Below, piece after piece: positions 3,443 to 64,000 of a stretch of 64,000 bases of DNA. Source of the stretch: a virus (Duplodnaviria > Heunggongvirae > Uroviricota > Caudoviricetes); the IMG/VR virus record IMGVR_UViG_3300029705_006930, one strand, 5' to 3'. The notes beneath the pieces are model-generated. The model saw nothing but the letters and a program-made list of their open reading frames with translations. It was not told the origin of the DNA and made no database searches. The position numbers and the translations under genes are program-made. Position 1 is the first letter of the stretch, and every line of letters starts with the position of its first letter.

Positions 3443-3599
3443 AGGTGCCTCCTTGTTTGGATTTTTGTTTCCTCTTTTATTGTCTATATTATACCATGAG
3501 AGGGGCTCTTTGATAACGGGGTTTTTGAAAAAACCAAAGAACTTTTTTAAATTTTTTGTGGCGCTTTATATATGTTAATGTATATAAGGAAAGGTTGAT

Positions 3600-4240
3600 G
3601 CGGTTGTTGCGGGGCAGTGTGATTTGGCGCAAAATTAGGCGATTTTTAGGGTGTTTGCAATTGTGTAAGGTCTGGTGTTGGAAATTTGGAAAGGTGTCTT
3701 AATGCCTGAATTTGAGGCTCTGGTGGGGTTATTCTATCACAGTGCTGACGCACTGTGGCGTCGCTGTGCTCCTTTATCTTATCAACGATGAAATGTTTGT
3801 TATTATGTTGCGCGAGAGAGGGTGTGGGGCGCGAAATTTGGGGGCCGGAGAGGTGGGAGGCGCGGTTTTGGGGCGAAATTGGGGCCCGGGTGGCCGGGGC
3901 TAAAATGGGCGTTTCCGGGGGTGTTTTGAGGGGTGTTTGGATAAGTTGCACAAAAATAGAAAAGCCACAGCCGGCTCTGTATGGGGCTAGCTGTGGTTCT
4001 TGTTGTTTATGGGCGTGATTTTGTTGTTTTTATAGTGTTTTGTGGCAAAAATGGTGAAAAAATGTGTAAAAAGGCGCGAAAATGCGTCAAAATGTGTGAT
4101 TTTTGATGATTTTTGGGTGGATTTGGTGTGGAATCAGGGCGAAATGGTGTGGAATGTTGTGTTTGGAGGGTGTTGTGGGGGTGAAAAGTGGACAAATATT
4201 GCTTTTTATGAGCCGAGAGTGAGATATAGCGACGCGTAGC
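3600..4240. repeat. G+T-skewed repeat-rich non-coding region with GCGAAAT(T)-GGGG direct repeats and many G4-G5 runs
   Basis: Top strand nearly C-free over long stretches. Repeats GCGCGAAATTTGGGGGCCGG (~3830), GGCGAAATTGGGGCCCGG (~3871), GGGCGAAATGGTGTGG (~4137), GCGCGAAAATGCG (~4075). ORFs inside are low-complexity. Confidence 0.4.
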
Positions 4241-12850: not shown

Positions 12851-13078
12851 ATGCTTAGAATTTATGTTGGTACAAACACAAACCGTACAGCTTACACACT
12901 TTCCCCAGAAACAACCCTCAGAGCAGCTTTTGAAACTGCAGGCGTGAACTATGAAATGGGTACCGCAACTCTTGATGGTTCCACACTTCAGCCGGGCGAC
13001 CTTGACAAGTCTTTTGCAGACTTCGGCATCACAGGTACAGCTTACCTCCTGAGCATTGTTAAAGCAAACAACGCTTAA
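12851..13078 (+). CDS. small beta-grasp (ThiS/MoaD/ubiquitin-like) protein candidate
   Basis: 75 aa; MLRIYVGTN...TLDGSTLQPGDLDKSFADFGI pattern typical of ThiS/MoaD-type beta-grasp proteins. Ends ...SIVKANNA with no terminal GG. Strong RBS; high-expression codon bias. Confidence 0.45.
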   Translation: MLRIYVGTNTNRTAYTLSPETTLRAAFETAGVNYEMGTATLDGSTLQPGDLDKSFADFGITGTAYLLSIVKANNA

Positions 13079-13094
13079 TTGATTTTACCTATAG

Positions 13095-13116
13095 GGGCGG
13101 GAGCAATCCTGCCCCA
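13095..13116 (+). promoter_or_regulatory. GC-rich hairpin between Ubl-like gene and downstream genes (possible attenuator)
   Basis: GGGGCGGGAG-CAATC-CTGCCCC stem-loop 17 nt after stop, followed by a weak A/T tract. Confidence 0.3.
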
Positions 13117-13139
13117 ATCTTTAAAGAGAGGAGCTCAGT

Positions 13140-14540
13140 ATGGCACACACATTTAAAAAATGGATGATAAAAGCCATTCCATATGACAACTTGTTTGACA
13201 TATCGGTGGACTTTGAGAATCCATTCCCGACCGATAATCGTCGCGATGCTACACTCGCGGCTGCATTTCACTGTTTGATTAAAGACAGAATTCCAGAGGG
13301 GGTTAATCGCATTGTAGTGCGTGATATCCACTCATATGACTGCAACGTGAGAGACATTTTTGACTATTATGAGGTTGAAAATGGTTTCAAAAGTTGTATT
13401 TTTTACTACGCAGATTGGGACAATGTGAATCTGCAGAGCAAAATTACATTGCCAAATGAATGGGAAGCTCAGGAAATTGCAAGCAAATTTACTGGATGTT
13501 ATGTTACAAATCACGTATCAAAACAATTGATGGTTATCTTTATTCCGAGCAACTATAACCTTGAAACTTGGCATAGACTTGGTGCATTGTTACCAAAATA
13601 TCCAGTGCTCGAGGATATGTGGGCAGCAAAACCACTTACCGAAGATGAACTCAAGATGTTGAAATCACTGTCAACAGACGGTGTAGATTTTGACACATAT
13701 ATAAAAGCGTGGATTGCGACACTCGACCTGCGCACATCCGCAATCAAAAAAATGTTCAACAAATTCATTATTGATAACATCGAGGAACAGATACGCAATG
13801 CCGAAGATAGACGTAGAAGCCTTGAAAACAATATCACAGACTATGCTGCGAGACTGGCAAGGCTGTATAGCGACCTTGACGGTGTTATTGAAATGATAAA
13901 CCGTCTTATGATAGGTGATGACACTGTTGAAGAAAAAGAAAAGAGACTTATCGAATTCTTGTTAACAAACAAAAATGTTGAGCCAATCAGACGTCGCAAT
14001 GACCGCGTTGAATTCAATGTTCACGCAGCAATTGACTGTTGGGATAACGATATGTTCTCATCTTATATCAATAATCACAACAGTTTATTGTATCGCCATA
14101 CAAGCAGATATTCATATGACCAGTTGAAACGTTTTTATGAGCAGGCATTGTTTGCCGGTCGCTTTAAAATTCAGGGCATTGCTAAATTTGAAATTGCAGC
14201 AACAGGTAATGTGAGACCAATTTCAAAAAATGGGCATTGGCCATCAGCTGAAATCGAAAACTGTATTCCAAATACACATGTGGATAAATTCACTTGTATT
14301 GGTAATCACAGACGTATGCTGGATGATGCTGCAAAAATTCGTGACTATGAACAGGCAATTTTGATTGCTATTCAGATTACACAGTCAGTTAACTGGTCGG
14401 ATGGTGCAGTTATGAATCACTTTATTCCTGAAGTGTTGCACTGTGAACGTCCAATTCTTACAGACAGAACAGGCAATACATACACTGTTGCACAGGTAAT
14501 AAGCATACTTGATGCCGAAATAAAGGAGGTTGAAAAATAA
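13140..14540 (+). CDS. hypothetical 466-aa protein of Ubl/E1/JAB cassette (PRTRC protein B position; possible E2-like or adaptor)
   Basis: AAAGAGAGGAGCTCAGT RBS. Stop overlaps start of JAB gene (ATAATG). No motif recognised by eye. Confidence 0.5.
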   Translation: MAHTFKKWMIKAIPYDNLFDISVDFENPFPTDNRRDATLAAAFHCLIKDRIPEGVNRIVVRDIHSYDCNVRDIFDYYEVENGFKSCIFYYADWDNVNLQSKITLPNEWEAQEIASKFTGCYVTNHVSKQLMVIFIPSNYNLETWHRLGALLPKYPVLEDMWAAKPLTEDELKMLKSLSTDGVDFDTYIKAWIATLDLRTSAIKKMFNKFIIDNIEEQIRNAEDRRRSLENNITDYAARLARLYSDLDGVIEMINRLMIGDDTVEEKEKRLIEFLLTNKNVEPIRRRNDRVEFNVHAAIDCWDNDMFSSYINNHNSLLYRHTSRYSYDQLKRFYEQALFAGRFKIQGIAKFEIAATGNVRPISKNGHWPSAEIENCIPNTHVDKFTCIGNHRRMLDDAAKIRDYEQAILIAIQITQSVNWSDGAVMNHFIPEVLHCERPILTDRTGNTYTVAQVISILDAEIKEVEK

Positions 14541-15475
14541 TGAAACCAATAAGATTGACCGATGATGTAAAAGCGGCTATTCTTGATAAATTTGCAAAAC
14601 AGCTGAGCACGGTTGTACGTGCTTCAACTATTACATTCACACATACGCCAACAGTGGTAAGCACACCGTTAGGCAAAGATGAAAAAGTGCTGATTACTTA
14701 TACAGCAGAAGCATTCCGCAAGCAGCAGATGCTTATTCAGAGTTTTGACAGTGAAGTGGCTTGGCACGGTGTTGTTGAACGTGAAGATGCAAAGCATTTT
14801 ATTATTACAGATATCGTAGTATATCCCCAGACTGTTACCGGCTCAACTGTTGAGATGGACGAAGACAAATATGCTCTTTGGACAATTCAGTTCGGTCGTG
14901 AACACGGCGAAGAAACATTCCAGAAACTGCGTATGCAGGGACATAGCCACGTGAATATGGAATGTTTTGCAAGTGGTACAGACTCTAAACACCAGGATGA
15001 CATCTTGGCAACAACTGACCCAAATGGGTTCTATATTTTCATTATTGCCAATAAAAAAGGCAAATTCTGGAGCACTATTTTCGACCTCGAAGCAAATGTT
15101 CAGTATGAAAATGCTGACATCGAAATCGAGTATGAGGAAGATGAGTACGATGAATTTGTAAGTGCAGCAGAAAGTGTGGTTGTAAAAAAGACTTATACAC
15201 CACCTTACAACTATGGCAATGGCTATCACAACAACGGAGCAGGGTATTCATACGGGGCAAGCGCTTATTCTCAGAAGCCACCTCAGACTCCGCCTATGCC
15301 AGTGCTTCCGACAAATACACAGCCAAAAACAAGCACAAACGAAACAAACACAAAGGCAAACACAAACACAAAAAAGGACGATAAATCCATTGAAGAAGAT
15401 ATCACCAATCTTATTCAGATGTCATTGAACGATATGGAATGGGATGAAGTTGGTGGATGGACAAGCAAAATGTAA
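14540..15475 (+). CDS. JAB/MPN (JAMM) metallopeptidase-domain protein with Tyr/Gly/Asn-rich low-complexity C-terminal region
   Basis: HSHVNMECFASGTD matches the JAMM motif H-x-H-x7-S-x2-D, with upstream Glu residues. C-terminal 110 aa low complexity, ending ...NDMEWDEVGGWTSKM. Confidence 0.6.
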   Translation: MKPIRLTDDVKAAILDKFAKQLSTVVRASTITFTHTPTVVSTPLGKDEKVLITYTAEAFRKQQMLIQSFDSEVAWHGVVEREDAKHFIITDIVVYPQTVTGSTVEMDEDKYALWTIQFGREHGEETFQKLRMQGHSHVNMECFASGTDSKHQDDILATTDPNGFYIFIIANKKGKFWSTIFDLEANVQYENADIEIEYEEDEYDEFVSAAESVVVKKTYTPPYNYGNGYHNNGAGYSYGASAYSQKPPQTPPMPVLPTNTQPKTSTNETNTKANTNTKKDDKSIEEDITNLIQMSLNDMEWDEVGGWTSKM

Positions 15476-15484
15476 GGAGAAATT

Positions 15485-16174
15485 ATGGACTTAAGTAAAT
15501 CACTTGACTGGTTTAATCCAGACAGCGTTTCGGAACGCATACATATTATCGGATGCGGTAGTGTAGGTAGTACAGTTGTGGAACTGTTGGCAAGATTCGG
15601 TCTTACAAAGTTCACTCTGTATGATTTTGACCTTGTTGAACCTCACAATATCGCAAACCAGATGTTCAGAAAAACGGACATTGGTAAAACAAAAGTTGAA
15701 GCATTGCAGCAGATTGTATGTGAAATCAATCCAGAGGCGGGCAAAGATATTAAACTTGAACCAGAAGGTTGGCACGGACAGCAGTTGTCTGGCTATGTAG
15801 TTCTTGCTGTTGATAGCATTGAATTGCGTAAAAAGATTTGTGAAGGTTTGCAGATGAATATCTTTGTTAAAGCTGTGTTTGATTTCCGTACAAGTTTGCT
15901 CAACGCACAGCATTATGCAGCCAATTGGCAGGACAAAAAACATCGTGATGACCTCATTGCAACAATGCAGTTCACCGATGAAGAAGCTGCGGCTGAAAAC
16001 CCAGTATCAGCGTGTGGTGTAACACTTGGTGTCGCACCAACAGTAAGACTGATATGCACACTAGGCGTAAGCAATATGATGAACTTTTTCAGAGAAAAGA
16101 AATTGAAAAAAGTTGTATTGGCAGACGCATTTAATTTTGATGCTGACCCTATGGTATTACCTATGGGTCAATAA
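15485..16174 (+). CDS. ThiF/MoeB/HesA-family E1-like adenylyltransferase
   Basis: IIGCGSVGS Rossmann GxGxxG; YDFDLVEPHNIANQMF (D-x-D...N-x-x-R-Q-like) signature of ThiF/E1; Cys in ENPVSACG. Confidence 0.7.
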   Translation: MDLSKSLDWFNPDSVSERIHIIGCGSVGSTVVELLARFGLTKFTLYDFDLVEPHNIANQMFRKTDIGKTKVEALQQIVCEINPEAGKDIKLEPEGWHGQQLSGYVVLAVDSIELRKKICEGLQMNIFVKAVFDFRTSLLNAQHYAANWQDKKHRDDLIATMQFTDEEAAAENPVSACGVTLGVAPTVRLICTLGVSNMMNFFREKKLKKVVLADAFNFDADPMVLPMGQ

Positions 16175-16198
16175 TACACAATAAGAGAAATGTTTATG

Positions 16199-16500
16199 GT
16201 GAATATTGCACATTGTATGGCAAGCTTTTGCTGTTAGCAGAAGTAAAGAAATGGTAGAGAACATAGAGGCAGGCGCTTAAGGAGCACGCTGAGGTGATTC
16301 CTAAGTACTGCAGCTTCTTGCATCCGACGAGCTCTGAAAAGGTAGGTTTAACAGGAGGATTGGATTACTTACAAGTGAAATTAACCAGTTCAAACCGTAA
16401 AGCTCATCTGAAATTAACGATAAATCCCAGATTTGCATCTCTTTTATCCGGGAATGAAGGGCTTAAAACTATAGCTAGACCATAAACAAGATAGGGAGGA
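16199..16500 (+). ncRNA. candidate structured ncRNA unit A, upstream of RT
   Basis: Non-coding 330-bp gap. Boxes TGAATATTGCACATTGT, TTGCTGTTAGCAG (16228), GAAATGGTAGAGA (16248), AACAGGAGGATTGG (16350), CCAGTTCA (16385) are shared with units at 17873 and 18398. Confidence 0.35.
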
Positions 16501-16504
16501 CATT

Positions 16505-17860
16505 ATGGTTTATATCACATATCCAGCACCTAACAAATTTCATCAGATTACATTTGAAGAAATGATGTCGGGCAATGTTAATACAGATAAATTAAGAATT
16601 TTAGGCGGACATAATACGCTTACTTTGCATCTTAACGATGTACCTGCAAACTTAAAAGGTCAGACTTCTGTACGCAAAATGATTGCAGATTTGCAGTATT
16701 TTGTAGGTGTATATTATGACACACTGATGCCACAGATAAAAGAATTTGAGAAGCTTTCAGATGCTCAGCGTCGCAGCGTCAAACAGCGTGACAAGATTGA
16801 AAATTATTTTGAACAGATGGGCGCAACTGCAAATGATGAAGACTTGCAGAAAATCACTGAACAGGTAGATGCGCTGCAGTGTGAAGTTGCAGAACAGCAG
16901 TATAAATATGCTTACTATACATTCGATTTGCGCAAAAGTTCAGCGCCGGAACACATTCCATTGTGGCGACTGCCAAAAGAATACAGACGTACAATCAATG
17001 CTCCGAACATACATCTTAAAAATGCGCTATATGAACTTAAAGAACTGTTTGAAAATATGATGATACGTACATATCATACTGCATCATTTGCGTATGTTAA
17101 ACATCGTGGAACTTTGGATGCTGTAAAACGTCATCAGAGCTGGGAAAGCAAATGGTTTGCAAAGTTTGACTTTTCAGATTTCTTTGGTAGCACAACAATT
17201 GACTTTGTTATGCAACAGTTCTCTCAAATATATCCGTTTAATATGATTTGTGCATATAAAGATGGTAAAGAAGCTCTTTATAAAGCATTGCAGTTGTGTT
17301 TTTTGGACGGTGGACTTCCACAGGGCACACCTATTAGTCCTCTCATCACAAACATAATGATGATACCATTTGACCACGCAATGTCAAAAGCTCTTAAAGA
17401 ATTTAAATATCCAAACAAACACGGTAGTGAACGTTTTGTGTATACAAGATATGCTGATGACCTGCTTATCAGTTGCCGTGTGGATTTTAAAGTGGAAATT
17501 ATTCAGGCATTTATTCTGGAAACTTTAAAATCAATGAATGCGCCTTTTAGCCTTAACGTTAAGAAAACTCGTTACGGTTCTAGTGCAGGTAGCAACTGGA
17601 ATCTTGGGGTGATGCTTAACAAAGACAATAAAATTACAATCGGTGCAGAAAACAAGCGCAGACTTAAAGCTTCTTTGAATTCATTTATCCTTGATATGAA
17701 GAATGAAAAACCTTGGGATATTTCTATGGTGTATAGACTCAGAGGTCAGATTTCTTATTATCGTAATGTGGAAAGGGAAGCAACAAATAACATCATTGCA
17801 GCGATGAACACAAAATATGGTGTTGATGCAGAAGCAATGATGAAATCTATTATAAGTTAA
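16505..17860 (+). CDS. reverse transcriptase (retron/DGR/UG-Abi clade)
   Basis: GATAGGGAGG RBS; motif 1-2 region YYTFDLRKSS...RRTINAPNIHLKNALYEL; motif A FDFSDFFGS (DFFxS type); motif B' LPQGTPISPLITNI; motif C YTRYADDLLIS. ~130-aa N-terminal extension. Confidence 0.8.
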   Translation: MVYITYPAPNKFHQITFEEMMSGNVNTDKLRILGGHNTLTLHLNDVPANLKGQTSVRKMIADLQYFVGVYYDTLMPQIKEFEKLSDAQRRSVKQRDKIENYFEQMGATANDEDLQKITEQVDALQCEVAEQQYKYAYYTFDLRKSSAPEHIPLWRLPKEYRRTINAPNIHLKNALYELKELFENMMIRTYHTASFAYVKHRGTLDAVKRHQSWESKWFAKFDFSDFFGSTTIDFVMQQFSQIYPFNMICAYKDGKEALYKALQLCFLDGGLPQGTPISPLITNIMMIPFDHAMSKALKEFKYPNKHGSERFVYTRYADDLLISCRVDFKVEIIQAFILETLKSMNAPFSLNVKKTRYGSSAGSNWNLGVMLNKDNKITIGAENKRRLKASLNSFILDMKNEKPWDISMVYRLRGQISYYRNVEREATNNIIAAMNTKYGVDAEAMMKSIIS

Positions 17861-17872
17861 TTTAATTTTTAT

Positions 17873-18150
17873 ATATTGAATATCACAGTCATTGTGAAGT
17901 GTTGATGTTATCGGCACTAACGAAATGGTAAGAAAGTATGGCAGGAAGGCCCGCAGGTTCATGATGAAGACGCGTGCGAGCTTACAGCTCCAGCATAAAA
18001 ATTAGAAATGCTGGTACAATGAAAAGGAAGAAAATCATGAACGAAAGCCATACTTTCCAACATCCACAAAACCACGAATTTAAAACGCTTCATTACTCCG
18101 CGACCCTCCGCCAGGAGGGCCCGGGCGCGGTAAAGCGTCAAATAAATAAT
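17873..18150 (+). ncRNA. candidate structured ncRNA unit B, downstream of RT
   Basis: TATTGAATATCACAGTCATTGT, TTGATGTTATCGGCA, GAAATGGTAAGAAAG (17925) homologous to unit A. Ends with GC-rich compound hairpin CCGCG-ACCCTCCGCCAGGAGGG-CCCGGGCGCGG (18097-18129) and box ATTGAGAATA (18148). Confidence 0.3.
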
Positions 18151-18167
18151 TGAGAATATATAAAAAA

Positions 18168-18350
18168 ACTTTATTGAATATCTTTAAATTTGTACATAAA
18201 TTTAAGAACTGTTGCTGTTAGCAGCAGTGTCAAACGAACAGGATAAATAAAGAAATACAAATTTCTTTATTTAAATAACTTCTTAGCGTCGTAAGGCGCG
18301 ATGCTCCGACATCGCTCATGACGACGCCAAAGTTATTGAGAATAAAGTTA
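18168..18350 (+). repeat. degenerate partial copy of the ncRNA unit
   Basis: TATTGAATATC (18171), TTGCTGTTAGCAGCAG (18210), GC-rich hairpin GCGTCGT...ACGACGC (18285-18326), box ATTGAGAATA (18334). Confidence 0.25.
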
Positions 18351-18397
18351 AAAAAATAATAAGAAAAATAAACAGTGTATATTTGCATAGCAAAGCT

Positions 18398-18760
18398 ATT
18401 GATGTAATCAGTAGTACAGAAATGGTAGGAAAGATTACACGGGACGGTGTCGCCGGTGAGGAGCCACCTCCTTTGCAAACCCCTGCAATATTTCTAAAAC
18501 CTAATTAAAACTATGTCCGAATGGTCAAACATAACAGGAGGACTGAGAAACATCACCTGAAGGATACCAACTGAACCCCCAGTTCAGATGACACGACAGC
18601 TGGAGAAATCTAGACCCATGGGATGGTGATTCAACATTAAATTACAATTCAGACTGTTTATTGCTTTATAGTTTTTGCCAAGCTACGAAAACTCCAAATA
18701 ATGAGTAGTGTGTGACATAAAAGCCAAGCCTCGTCAACTCCCTTTCGGGGCTTGGTAAAG
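18398..18760 (+). ncRNA. candidate structured ncRNA unit C
   Basis: TTGATGTAATCAG...GAAATGGTAGGAAAG (18420), AACAGGAGGACTG (18532), CTGAAC-CCCCA-GTTCAG hairpin (18570-18590), terminal hairpin GCCAAGCC...GGCTTGG (18722-18757). Confidence 0.3.
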
Positions 18761-18797
18761 ACTATAAAACAAACAATTTAAGTAAAGGAGAATATAT

Positions 18798-19187
18798 ATG
18801 ACAAAAGCAGAAAAAGCAGCTGGCAGGCTGTTAAGAAGAATGAATAAAGAATACTTGGGTGAGGTAGAAGCATTGATAAAAATGTGTCGACAGCCTAAAG
18901 TTGACCTTTCTGAAATCAGTATTCAGTCCTACAAAGTAACAGTTTTGGCAGAGCTCAAAGACGAATTTTTTGCAATCAAAATGACAGAAGATGAAATGGA
19001 GTATATTTATGACCTCTATGCTTGTCTTGATGCTCCTTTGAATTATTTGTGGGAATGTTGGCGTGATGATGAAGGCTATAACATTTCTGACTCCATTGGT
19101 GATTTAGTTTCTGATATTATAAGCCAGGATATCGAATGTATTTCAGAAGATAACTTAATCGAGGTGAATATGGATGAGACTGAATGA
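18798..19187 (+). CDS. hypothetical protein
   Basis: AAGTAAAGGAGAATATATATG RBS; 129 aa; acidic. Confidence 0.45.
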   Translation: MTKAEKAAGRLLRRMNKEYLGEVEALIKMCRQPKVDLSEISIQSYKVTVLAELKDEFFAIKMTEDEMEYIYDLYACLDAPLNYLWECWRDDEGYNISDSIGDLVSDIISQDIECISEDNLIEVNMDETE

Positions 19188-19416
19188 TAAACTCACAATT
19201 TATTTAGACAATGGCAATAAATTGGTTGCTGAATTATATAATCATGCAGGTATAGAAAAAGAAATCTCCGTACATATTGAAAACGCTTCAGGTGTATGTA
19301 TTCAAGATATTTGCACCGTAAAAGCAGTAGAAGAAATTGAATGTTTAGTATGGGGAGATGAAAATTCTGAAGATTATACAGACGAGTTCTATATACCGCT
19401 TTATAAGGAGGTCTAG
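19174..19416 (+). CDS. hypothetical protein
   Basis: GAGGTGA RBS; overlaps upstream stop; 80 aa. Confidence 0.4.
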   Translation: MRLNDKLTIYLDNGNKLVAELYNHAGIEKEISVHIENASGVCIQDICTVKAVEEIECLVWGDENSEDYTDEFYIPLYKEV

Positions 19417-55426: not shown

Positions 55427-56749
55427 ATGAGACAAATATTAAATATGAGAGAAACATTAACGCGAGTAAGTTTTTTATTTAAGACTATTGCGAGTACACC
55501 AAGGACAACTGAAAAGAAACGATTGTTGCGTTATATCAACAGCTCAGAACCAGAGAATGTATGTGAAATGTTTCTGTATACTTTACGATTTTTATTGGAT
55601 AACAATGTAACAACAGGTATCGATAAAAAGAAACTCAAAGCTCAAATTAATATGCCTGATATTAATTTTCCAATGAAATGGTCACATATGTTGGAATATA
55701 TCAAAGAAAACAATACAGGAAGGCATGAAGATATTCGCAGAGCACAGCTCTTTATCGAAGATAATCCCGAGAATGCGGAATTTATTGCTGATATTATAAC
55801 AAAATCATATAGGTTAGGACTGACAGCCAAAACAGTAAATGAAGTTTATGAAGATTTTATTCCTGTTTGGTCAGTACAGCAGGCATATCCTTTGGAAAAA
55901 TATCCGCTTAAGGACGGAGAATGGTTTTCTTTATCACAAAAGCTTAATGGGTTCCATGCCTCATATTACAAGGGTAAATTAATAAGCCGACAAGGAAAAG
56001 AAATCAAAGGTTGTAAGCACGTTATTAACGCAATAAACAACTTTAAACTTCAAGATTTCTTTATTGATGGCGAGCTTATCCGGCGTAATGATATTGAACC
56101 TCATCTCTCAGACGAAGAAAATTTTCGACAGACTGTTTCAATTGCGAATTCTGATTCTGACGACAAAACAGACCTGTGTTTTATTTATTATGATATCATT
56201 CCAGCTGATGATTTTGACAAAGGCAAATGTGAAATAACATATCGCCAACGTCTTAATGACATGCATAAATTAAACAGTATAATTCTGCAGACTCCATTTT
56301 ATAAAACGTTTCATATGGTGAAATGGTTTTATCACGGCAATGACCAAAAGAAAATTCAGTTTTGGCTTGATTATGCAAATGAAAATGATATGGAGGGTCT
56401 TATGTTAAATAAGGATACTGTATATCAATGCAAACGTAATTCAGGCATTTTAAAGGTAAAAAGTTGGAAACATTGTGACCTTAGAGTAACGGGCGTTGAA
56501 GAAGGCGATGGCAAATACAAAGGAACCCTTGGAAAACTGATTGTGGACTATAAAGGAAATACTTTGGGATTAAGTGGAATGAGCGATGAGGAACGTTATA
56601 TATTTTGGAATAATCCACAGGACATAGTTGGGAAGATTGTGCTCGTTAAATATAAACAGGAAACAAAAGACAAAACAGGTAAACGTAGTTTGCAGTTCGC
56701 AACCTACCAAGGTGTTAGAACTGATAAAGATGAAGTCAGCTACAATTAA
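55427..56749 (+). CDS. ATP-dependent DNA ligase
   Basis: Motif I KLNGFHA; III FFIDGELI; IIIa FIYYDII; IV EGLMLNK; V ILKVK. Confidence 0.7.
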   Translation: MRQILNMRETLTRVSFLFKTIASTPRTTEKKRLLRYINSSEPENVCEMFLYTLRFLLDNNVTTGIDKKKLKAQINMPDINFPMKWSHMLEYIKENNTGRHEDIRRAQLFIEDNPENAEFIADIITKSYRLGLTAKTVNEVYEDFIPVWSVQQAYPLEKYPLKDGEWFSLSQKLNGFHASYYKGKLISRQGKEIKGCKHVINAINNFKLQDFFIDGELIRRNDIEPHLSDEENFRQTVSIANSDSDDKTDLCFIYYDIIPADDFDKGKCEITYRQRLNDMHKLNSIILQTPFYKTFHMVKWFYHGNDQKKIQFWLDYANENDMEGLMLNKDTVYQCKRNSGILKVKSWKHCDLRVTGVEEGDGKYKGTLGKLIVDYKGNTLGLSGMSDEERYIFWNNPQDIVGKIVLVKYKQETKDKTGKRSLQFATYQGVRTDKDEVSYN

Positions 56750-62419: not shown

Positions 62420-64000
62420 ATGAAAAGAGTTGCATGTTTATATCGTGTTTCAACAAAAGGACAAGTTGATAAAGATGACATTCCTATGCAGCGTAAAGAA
62501 TGCAGTGAATTTATTAAAAAACAGGGATGGCAATTAGTCAATGAATATTATGAAAAAGGTGTCAGTGGCTATAAAAAATCAGCAGACCAACGTGATGTAT
62601 TGCAAACAATCAAGAATGATGCTTTAAATAATCAGTTTGACATTCTGCTTGTCTATATGTTTGACAGATTAGGACGACGCGAAGATGAAACTCCATTTAT
62701 TCTTGAATGGTTTACAAAACAAGGTATAGAAATGTGGAGTGTTAAAGAAGGCCAACAGTCCTTTTCACAACATATTGATAAATTACTTAACTACATACGT
62801 TTCTGGCAAGCCAGCGGTGAAAGTCATAAGACTTCTATGCGTGTTGATAGTAGCCATAGGCAAATGGCTGAAGAAGGCAAATTTAGAGGCGGCGATGCAC
62901 CATATGGATATATGCTTGTAAAAACAGGTGTATTCAATAAAAAGAAAAAAGAATTATTAAAATTAGTCATCAATACCATTGAGGCCCCTATTGTGCAGCT
63001 TATATATAAGTTAGCTTTGGAGGGATATGGTCAAACAAAAATAGCCAAATATTTAAATGAGCACGGCATAAAAACTCGAAACAATAAAATGTGGAATAGT
63101 GGTACAATTGGTTATATCCTAAAAAATCCAATTTATAAAGGTTATCCTGCATATAGAAAGAAAACAGGACAAGGAGAGGGAGTTCATAATTTGCCAAGTT
63201 CAGAATGGATATTATCTTCGGCACAGCAAATTGAGCTTGTTATAATTTCAGAGAATGATTGGGATAGAGTGCAGGAATTACGTACACAACATCATAATTC
63301 TCCTAATCATAACACAATCACAAATTCACCATTATTATTAGTTGGGTTGACTTACTGTGGATGCTGTAAAAGTCCATTGACTACCACTTATTCATATAAG
63401 TACAATAAAGATAAAACAAAGGTATATCAGCGACCAAAATATCGTTGCTCTGGTAAGGCAAATGCAAAAGCACTCTGTGATGGACAAACCGTTTATAGCG
63501 CAGAGAAATATGAAAAAGCTGTTTTAAATCAGATTGATATTTATTTAAATAAAATCAAAAATACACCACAATCTCAACAAGATACAACAGCTAATGATTT
63601 TCAAAAAAATATTAAATCTCTCGAGCATAAATTAGCAAAAATCAATAATATGATAGAAATATTATCTGATGAAGTTGGTAATGCCTTGATAGGAGAAAGT
63701 CGATTTACACCAGAAGTTTTGGCAGAACAAATTAACAAAAAACAACAAGATAAAATTTTAATACAAAATGAACTTGACAAAATAAAACAAGAGGCAGATA
63801 ATTATAACCATGAACAAATCAATACACAGCAATTAAACCAAGTTATTCCAATCTGGAAAGAAAGGTTTGACGGATTTTCAACTGAAAAGAAAAAACGTTT
63901 ATTGCGTATCTTGATTTCACGCATTGAATTTAATAGAGATACAATTATTATAGATTTTAATACAACTATTCAATGCTTTTTAGATGCTATCACTGCATAA
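62420..64000 (+). CDS. large serine recombinase (phage integrase type), truncated at window end
   Basis: N-terminal resolvase catalytic domain AC(L)YRVSTKGQ with Ser nucleophile; recombinase domain; Cys-rich zinc-ribbon CGCCKSP...C; coiled-coil C-terminus. Confidence 0.7.
   Translation: MKRVACLYRVSTKGQVDKDDIPMQRKECSEFIKKQGWQLVNEYYEKGVSGYKKSADQRDVLQTIKNDALNNQFDILLVYMFDRLGRREDETPFILEWFTKQGIEMWSVKEGQQSFSQHIDKLLNYIRFWQASGESHKTSMRVDSSHRQMAEEGKFRGGDAPYGYMLVKTGVFNKKKKELLKLVINTIEAPIVQLIYKLALEGYGQTKIAKYLNEHGIKTRNNKMWNSGTIGYILKNPIYKGYPAYRKKTGQGEGVHNLPSSEWILSSAQQIELVIISENDWDRVQELRTQHHNSPNHNTITNSPLLLVGLTYCGCCKSPLTTTYSYKYNKDKTKVYQRPKYRCSGKANAKALCDGQTVYSAEKYEKAVLNQIDIYLNKIKNTPQSQQDTTANDFQKNIKSLEHKLAKINNMIEILSDEVGNALIGESRFTPEVLAEQINKKQQDKILIQNELDKIKQEADNYNHEQINTQQLNQVIPIWKERFDGFSTEKKKRLLRILISRIEFNRDTIIIDFNTTIQCFLDAITA

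Follow-up and report, generated by a model that had tools for sequence, protein, structure and literature searches.

The 64,000-nt stretch analysed here (the window; IMG/VR virus record IMGVR_UViG_3300029705_006930, Caudoviricetes) carries on its + strand a gene for a retron-like reverse transcriptase (RT) at 16505-17860, which sits between four homologous non-coding units tiling the gaps on both of its sides. The gap before the gene measures 330 nt (16175-16504) and the gap after it 937 nt (17861-18797); both contain short open reading frames (ORFs), none of them convincing. The matching gaps of relatives held no gene call in locus L062 and one short call each in L065 and L067. A repeat search of the window recovered a 43-nt family with four copies, at 16222, 17896, 18206 and 18393. 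The homologous boxes that the first-pass annotation of this DNA had picked out by eye are therefore real, and the family occurs only in the gaps flanking the RT gene. Within the 64 kb, GAAATGGTA was found three times and AACAGGAGGA and ATTGAGAATA twice each, every copy lying inside a unit.

Unit A (16191-16488, + strand, 298 nt) ends 16 nt before the RT start codon (ATG). It opens with a 5' arm, a1 (16191-16200, TGTTTATGGT), and G16201, continues through hairpin 0 (16206-16223), hairpin 1 (16224-16244), the purine-rich linker GAAATGGTAGAG and a variable body, and closes with G16478 and the 3' arm, a2 (16479-16488). Unit B (17866-18166, + strand, 301 nt) begins 6 nt past the RT stop codon. Its a1 (17866-17877, TTTTTATATATT) and G17878 are followed by two 5' hairpins, an 11-bp long-range stem (17932-17942/18047-18057) and a GC-rich hairpin (approximately 18083-18140), and its 3' end reads ATTGA-G18154 and then a2 (18155-18166); the 80 nt ahead of G-a2 have a folding z-score of −4.3. 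Unit B' (18167-18349, + strand, 183 nt) directly abuts unit B and comprises a1 (18167-18175, AACTTTATT), G18176, two 5' hairpins, an AT-rich hairpin (18244-18273), a long GC-rich hairpin resembling the msd stem of retrons (approximately 18274-18337), G18340 and a2 (18341-18349), with a z-score of −5.3 for the a2-proximal hairpin. This is the copy that had been described as partial and placed at 18168; the copy is genuine, but it forms a complete unit of a short class rather than a fragment. Unit C (18367-18662, + strand, 296 nt) starts 17 nt after unit B' and consists of a1 (18367-18376, AATAAACAGT), G18377, two 5' hairpins, a variable body with AACAGGAGGA and CCAGTTCA boxes, G18652 and a2 (18653-18662). 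The distance from GAAATGGTA to AACAGGAGG in unit C was 114 nt, not the 112 nt given earlier. Unit lengths in the window thus range from 183 to 301 nt, and the family median is 300 nt.

The pairing of a1 with a2 was examined in 14 units from four genomes, namely the window and its relatives L062, L065 and L067. In each unit, the 74 nt ahead of the shared box were compared with the 380 nt after it for their longest exact inverted repeat, with no register assumed. Thirteen of the 14 units yielded an inverted repeat of 8-14 nt at a single, constant register with respect to the conserved box, and the same number had a G immediately after a1 and a G immediately before a2. The arm sequences are unit-specific among paralogues and change in a compensatory manner between orthologs (e.g., AATAAACAGT/ACTGTTTATT versus AATAAATAGT/ACTATTTATT); in unit C of L065, a one-base insertion is matched on both sides. 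Across the family, an exact a1/a2 repeat of at least 9 nt was present in 77 of 116 units compared with 16 of 116 shuffled controls. Among these 77 units, a G followed a1 in 68 and a G preceded a2 in 66, compared with approximately 21-27% in controls. The non-coding RNA (ncRNA) of retron Ec86, whose sequence matched 48 E. coli genomes at 100% identity, follows the same a1-G...G-a2 plan.

Past the a1-flanking G, a unit runs through 4-5 nt, a variable hairpin 0, a conserved 9-bp hairpin 1 with a 3-nt loop and a purine-rich linker; its 3' part is a diverse body of 100-230 nt followed by G-a2. This order (a1-G-hairpin 0-hairpin 1-linker-body-a2) was common to all 14 constrained folds. The conserved boxes can be assigned accordingly: TGAATAT spans the final base of a1, the G at which branching putatively occurs and the first bases of the RNA body; TTGCTGTTAGCAGCA corresponds to a hairpin; and ATTGAG|AATA joins the putative template end and the G to the first bases of a2. 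A 63-aa ORF with a GTG start (16294-16485) overlaps unit A, and the AACAGGAGGA box resembles a Shine-Dalgarno sequence. This ORF is probably not coding, its start-codon spacing being wrong and the ORF being unconserved in unit C or in relatives. A reading of AACAGGAGGATTG as a Shine-Dalgarno sequence plus ORF was likewise rejected, given a TTG only 1 nt away, a stop after five codons in unit C and an unconserved ORF.

In the 14 units, pairing in hairpin 1 reached 99.2%, and 5 of its 9 pairs had compensatory changes. None of 500 shuffles equalled this pairing, and the signal vanished in every slid register. In 66 distinct sequences from many genomes, gathered in one search iteration, pairing was 99.5% and double changes affected 9 of 9 pairs, in an alignment that was fitted to the model and is for that reason biased toward structure. 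Two positions are mostly G-U (56/66 and 40/66), which indicates that the structure forms in RNA of the + strand, the strand of the RT gene. The hairpin 1 covariance model matched the window exactly four times, at the four units, and neither this model nor blastn-short found a copy elsewhere in the 64 kb or on the opposite strand; with blastn-short, the units gave nothing beyond chance matches of 10-14 nt within the window. A promoter and terminator consensus scan of 15400-19300 gave results at the shuffled expectation, with no site at any unit start. One candidate, a Bacteroidetes −7 promoter motif (TAnnTTTG), was dropped, as the relatives are mostly metagenome-assembled genomes (MAGs) of Clostridia and the box coincides with the G after a1. 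The earlier view of the flanks as structured RNA rather than promoters, for which covariation had been proposed as a check, is thus supported both by the covariation and by promoter-like sites at chance frequency, absent from unit starts.

Alignment of whole orthologous units (MAFFT/RNAalifold) recovered only the 5' hairpins and, in the unit-A alignment, a1/a2, because the bodies are too diverged to be aligned. A motif search of the variable bodies found none common to the family, and the AACAGGAGGA and CCAGTTCA boxes are limited to close relatives. Two unit classes can be distinguished. Short units (<250 nt, n = 11) are approximately 185-210 nt long, with window unit B', L062 5693-5903 and L065 5580-5771 as examples, and have a very stable, often GC-rich hairpin beside a2 (mean z −2.8, individual values to −8.8). 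The majority are units of approximately 300 nt; window unit B is long, yet also has a stable a2-adjacent hairpin.

The RT (16505-17860, + strand) is a protein of 451 aa with the motifs FDFSDFFGS, PQGTPISP and YADD and an N-terminal extension of approximately 135-150 aa. It matched Pfam RVT_1 at 3.7e-18. Its 25 best PADLOC models were all retron-type, with RT_II-A first (2e-41), and in NCBIfam the retron St85 RT (1e-46) preceded group II RTs (3e-20) and Drt2 (1.6e-12). The best PDB-sequence matches were the RTs of Ec83, Ec78 and Ec86. The AlphaFold2 (AF2) model, built on 34 homologs, had a mean predicted local distance difference test (pLDDT) value of 87.8, and a fold search with it placed the RTs of Eco7/Ec78, Ec83 and Ec86 first (target-normalised template modelling (TM) scores 0.66-0.80), above group II, G2L4, diversity-generating retroelement (DGR), DRT2 and DRT9 enzymes. 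By sequence and predicted fold, the enzyme is therefore closest to retron RTs, in agreement with the retron side of the first-pass call of a retron/UG-type RT. The first ~135 residues form an extra domain, modelled as beta strands and long helices, that lies outside every match. YADD is invariant across the RT family, for which the consensus reads DAxKRH and NWNLGV at the sites of the retron motifs NAxxH and VTG, so that the H and the G alone are kept. Since NAxxH and VTG are not conserved, we term the enzyme retron-like rather than a retron RT.

Homologs of this RT are numerous, with more than 4,500 in a metagenome protein collection, 61 IMG/VR loci on viral contigs of 60-150 kb and approximately 400 places in species-representative genomes, nearly all of them MAG contigs assigned to gut Clostridia/Bacillota. 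Some RT-bearing contigs reach 0.36-0.43 Mb in the species-representative genomes and, in the protein collection, as much as ~1.1 Mb, which suggests prophages. A protein search of the phage collection found no close RT homolog in cultured phages, and a DNA search of that collection gave a sole match, 132 nt of an unannotated faecal phage, within the ThiF-like gene described below (approximately 15536-15667). Staphylococcus jumbo phages also encode a retron-like RT that has an N-terminal domain and adjoins a 1.2-kb non-coding region, and, as here, they have no classic effector; in contrast to the present locus, their non-coding region lies upstream only. This RT was not detectably close, falling outside the tblastn matches at E ≤ 1e-10 in the phage collection.

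With the iterated hairpin model, 83 loci yielded 139 matches, 137 of them on the RT strand and none inside an RT ORF. In the 59 loci with enough flank for counting, on phage-like and MAG contigs assigned for the most part to Clostridia, one upstream unit was accompanied by one to four downstream units in 31 (one in 19 loci, two in 9, three in 2 and four in 1). Another 9 loci had an upstream unit only, 5 had downstream units only, and 14 had none. The upstream hairpin lies 200-320 nt ahead of the RT start, and the first downstream hairpin 27-73 nt past the RT stop in about two-thirds of loci. Neither the first nor the iterated covariance model reached the IMG/VR loci with RTs of 40% identity. 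Inspected by eye, distant IMG/VR loci displayed the same plan with another hairpin sequence (1 + 1 in L002, 1 + 2 in L031). The multi-unit arrangement is the norm across a large phage family.

Several relatives depart from the window in detail. The largest array, with one hairpin 1 match upstream and four downstream, was seen in L102 (2412-5126), a MAG contig labelled Candidatus Limimonas egerieequi. L065 has an additional 155-aa ORF between unit A and the RT gene (3531-3998). In L067 (6090-7349), a gene for an RRXRR+HNH endonuclease follows soon after the sole downstream unit, at the place where the window has more units and small genes. Loci L034-L060 (e.g., L035 3780-5560) encode an RT subfamily of approximately 381 aa, alignable only from residue ~134 of the window RT. 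Their RT gene directly adjoins the ThiF gene, leaving no gap upstream, tRNA-like sequences occur in the downstream gap, and the covariance models detected no unit.

Upstream of the RT gene, the window contains a block of four + strand genes whose conservation was surveyed by tblastn of the neighbouring genes against all 147 RT loci. The gene adjoining unit A encodes an E1-like adenylyltransferase of the ThiF family (15485-16174; Pfam ThiF 1.4e-20), which also scored down to 3e-17 against PADLOC E1-E2 (Cap2-like) models. Of the 130 loci whose upstream flank was long enough, 120 have it beside the RT gene; in L078 it lies on the RT gene's other side, so that the linkage has outlasted rearrangement. 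The preceding gene (14540-15475) encodes a 311-aa protein with homologs in 113 of the 147 loci. Its site E72...H135-S-H137-x7-S145-x2-D148 is invariant in 40 homologs, the family profile matched Rpn11 (E = 2.5e-4) across the metal-site motifs, and the AF2 model (pLDDT 80) retrieved Rpn11, CSN5 and PfJAMM1 as top folds. The invariant site, the Rpn11 profile match and the MPN-type fold together identify it as a metalloprotease-like protein of the JAMM/MPN+ (JAB) type. The next member upstream, a 466-aa protein with a central coiled coil (13140-14540), has homologs in 58 of 147 loci, a count limited by flank length, and gave no Pfam, PDB or profile match beyond coiled-coil noise. At the head of the block, a conserved 75-aa protein (12851-13078) has homologs upstream of the 466-aa gene in 35 loci and no Pfam, PDB or profile match. 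It shares the core LDGS.L..GD.DK.F and a C-terminal NA in 7 of 8 sequences (NANA in L067), and is a candidate ubiquitin-like or carrier protein for the E1. The three genes downstream in the window had a homolog in none of the 147 loci.

Judged by sequence and predicted fold, the 12851-16174 block resembles a ubiquitin-like conjugation module. As in CBASS Cap2-Cap3 and Bil systems, an E1-like adenylyltransferase stands beside a JAMM protease and a small conserved candidate carrier. Unlike in those systems, the small protein ends in NA rather than GG, and neither an E2 domain nor a beta-grasp fold is evident. From their linkage, the E1, the JAMM protein and the two other block proteins are candidate partners or effectors of the RT. 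Our literature search found no description of an RT linked to E1/JAMM genes.

In our interpretation, the locus is a retron-like retroelement, carried by a phage, with one RT for several separate template RNAs, and we assign this reading a probability of roughly 0.62. Unit A, the RT gene and the units through unit C would probably be transcribed as one + strand RNA, because the units tile the gaps and no promoters were found between them. Within this transcript, each unit would fold independently, its private a1/a2 stem bringing the G just 3' of a1 next to the template end just 5' of a2. The common 5' module (hairpin 0, hairpin 1 and the purine-rich linker) would be the likely RT-binding handle, equivalent to the msr of retrons. 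By analogy with retrons, the RT may prime on the 2'-OH of the a1-adjacent G and copy the sequence-diverse body. The predicted products are four different RNA-linked single-stranded DNAs; those of units B and B' would be GC-rich DNA hairpins beginning with the complement of ...ATTGA. That such a scheme is feasible follows from engineered arrayed retron ncRNAs ("multitrons", PMC10370050), in which tandem msr-msd copies on one transcript yield RT-DNA from each with one RT. In contrast to multitrons, whose msr copies are identical, the present array is natural, its handle is conserved in structure and short motifs only, and its a1/a2 arms are unit-specific. Three roles had been proposed for the repeated copies: alternative templates, a rolling or iterated template, or decoys. 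The first fits best, each unit being a complete retron-like msr-msd with its own a1/a2 and flanking Gs.

The comparison with canonical retrons (Ec86/Eco1, Ec78/Eco7, Ec83/Eco4 and St85/Sen2), which have the closest RT domain by sequence and fold, reveals both shared and deviating features. As in retrons, an ncRNA lies directly upstream of the RT gene on the same strand, an a1/a2 stem has flanking Gs as in Ec86, short 5' stem-loops precede the template region, the short units end in a long a2-adjacent hairpin, and the element is carried by a phage, retrons being frequent in prophages. Unlike in retrons, tripartite systems of one ncRNA, an RT and an effector of a known type, there are 2-5 ncRNAs per RT, on both sides of the gene, the RT has its N-terminal extension, and the linked genes encode E1-like and JAMM proteins, outside the effector types of the 13-type classification (PMC7736814).

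Several observations weigh against the proposed retroelement. The retron-defining motifs are not conserved in the RT, NAxxH (NAKIH in Ec83) reading AVKRH and VTG reading NLG, and its NCBIfam score for retron St85, 159.5, does not reach the cutoff of 235. Most units of ~300 nt have no unusually stable hairpin beside a2 (mean z −0.6); they are thus unlike classic msd stems, and it is here that the structure departs most from that of classic retrons. The 14 loci without a model match and the 9 with an upstream match only, out of 59, also count against it, and limited model sensitivity may explain them. The a1/a2 positions were picked by maximal complementarity, a circularity that the shuffle control and the independent G/G flanks lessen and do not abolish. 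In contrast to known retrons, the multicopy single-stranded DNA (msDNA) is putative here, as is any other complementary DNA (cDNA) from these units. Finally, priming could proceed by a mode other than branching, which may also be so for UG27.

UG27 itself provides the nearest alternative. It is a class 2 UG/Abi RT found in gut phages with a putative ncRNA (Mestre 2022, PMC9226505). A Minerva preprint of 24 September 2026 (10.64898/2026.09.22.753630) describes phage UG27 RTs with variable arrays of ~150-nt units, each of which templates a 50-100-nt cDNA hairpin; besides the RT (YSDD), synthesis needs two accessory proteins, sORF and bORF, neither of which has a recognisable domain, and the units (approximately 135-167 nt) have an AUCN7UANAG start motif, a UUYA stop motif and a pseudoknot (10.64898/2026.09.22.753630). 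If the present units were UG27/DRT-like templates, an internal segment would be copied into short free cDNA hairpins with no 2'-5' branch, and a1/a2 would be a basal stem. We regard this as unlikely, while still the most serious competitor to the retron-like reading. The likeness is considerable: both are RTs of human or animal gut phages and prophages with arrays of variable copy number among relatives, units conserved in structure and diverse in sequence with a basal hairpin, and a conserved accessory gene block linked to the RT, the retron signature motifs are absent from the RT, and no complementarity to other genome parts was found (in our case within the 64-kb window). However, the start motif is missing: ATCN7TANAG had no match in 16175-18797 and 10 matches window-wide, compared with 8.6 expected by chance. 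The units measure ~300 or ~190 nt rather than ~150 nt and flank the RT gene, YADD is invariant here while the tested UG27 systems have YSDD, and E1 and JAMM domains can be recognised in the accessory genes. The nearest RT profiles and folds are those of retrons, with the class 2 UG relatives DRT2 and DRT9 scoring far lower, and the conserved Gs after a1 and before a2 match the retron plan. By the published description of UG27, the system is analogous to it but lacks its reported features.

The units might also be structured RNAs independent of reverse transcription, such as regulatory small RNAs or leaders, protein sponges, or processing and stability elements of the operon, merely co-inherited with the RT gene. 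The long units with no clear msd-like hairpin would suit this view, as would the additional conserved hairpin at 18661-18772, which indicates that the region has other RNA elements. We nevertheless hold it to be improbable, since units occur solely beside members of the RT family, on the RT strand, over RT identities of 36-57%, while the genes downstream have no homolog in any related locus; moreover, the a1-G...G-a2 plan is specific to retron templates and no Rfam regulatory family was matched. A DNA-level origin of the repeats, be it as phage promoters or operators in multiple copies, as replication iterons or as miniature inverted-repeat transposable elements (MITEs) with terminal inverted repeats, could account for inverted repeats that bound the copies and for the palindrome-like conserved box inside them, and yet is very improbable. 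Sigma-70-like sites numbered 13 against 13.1 expected, none at a unit start; units B and B' abut with no spacer; the kept G-U pairs (56/66 and 40/66) would be mispaired in DNA or in the opposite strand; the terminal repeats vary while the interior 5' module is conserved, the reverse of a MITE; and the 64 kb contain no further copy on either strand. Least probable of all is an RT of the group II intron maturase or DGR type whose flanks are ribozyme domains or a template repeat/variable repeat (TR/VR) pair, a reading to which the weak RT-domain similarity to group II RTs (NCBIfam 2.9e-20) lends some colour. Retron RTs ranked above group II and DGR RTs in sequence and fold, no diverged unit copy, and hence no VR, was found in any coding region of the window, and Pfam, PHROG and PADLOC scans gave no Avd-type match for any RT-adjacent gene. 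An Rfam search of the whole window at the gathering threshold and of 16100-18850 at E ≤ 10 returned nothing relevant, neither a group II intron nor another family, so that the intron explanation that had been raised against the first-pass proposal is not supported.

The locus is best read as the retron principle combined with a UG27-like array logic. The impression that the arrangement has no counterpart stands in part: no description of a retron with several natural ncRNAs was found in our literature search, but UG27 arrays (10.64898/2026.09.22.753630) and engineered arrays (PMC10370050) are precedents for the array itself. Reverse transcription of the units, if it occurs, would make this the first natural element of retron type in which one RT has several templates, and would extend phage RTs with ncRNA arrays of the UG27 type to a second, unrelated RT lineage, suggesting small-cDNA repertoires as a general phage strategy. 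Such loci would also offer natural scaffolds for multiplexed retron editing, as a handle conserved in structure and private a1/a2 stems avoid the long direct repeats that hamper engineered arrays. The retroelement could serve lysogen defence or exclusion, as prophage retrons do, or counter-defence. The tight linkage to E1-like and JAMM genes provides a testable lead on the purpose of the phage cDNAs and, if it reflects a shared function, would couple reverse transcription to protein conjugation, for which we found no described precedent. More tentatively, and with clear doubt, we suggest a large, undescribed lineage of retron-like elements in gut Clostridia phages, which would use arrays of unit-specific msr-msd RNAs on both sides of the RT gene, produce a repertoire of different msDNAs and work with the E1/JAMM module.

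According to its gene content, the window is probably part of a large phage, with long stretches of small + strand ORFs and a replication block comprising a DNA polymerase, a DnaB-like helicase, a Sak4-like protein, an exonuclease, a ligase and a ribonucleotide reductase. Two separate ATP-dependent DNA ligase-like genes are present, at 110-1411 (− strand) and 55427-56749 (+ strand). A large serine recombinase gene at the right end (62420-64000), truncated by the window edge, suggests a temperate lifestyle. A tRNA scan of the window found none.

After the last unit, a conserved terminal hairpin (18661-18772, + strand) is followed by TTGGTAAAG; its inner stem is GCCAAGCC/GGCTTGG, with TAAAG thereafter. 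It was rejected as a T-run terminator by the consensus scan of 15400-19300. Behind the final unit of L062, L065 and L067 the hairpin is found again, as it is in two copies in L002, and compensatory changes occur among these elements.

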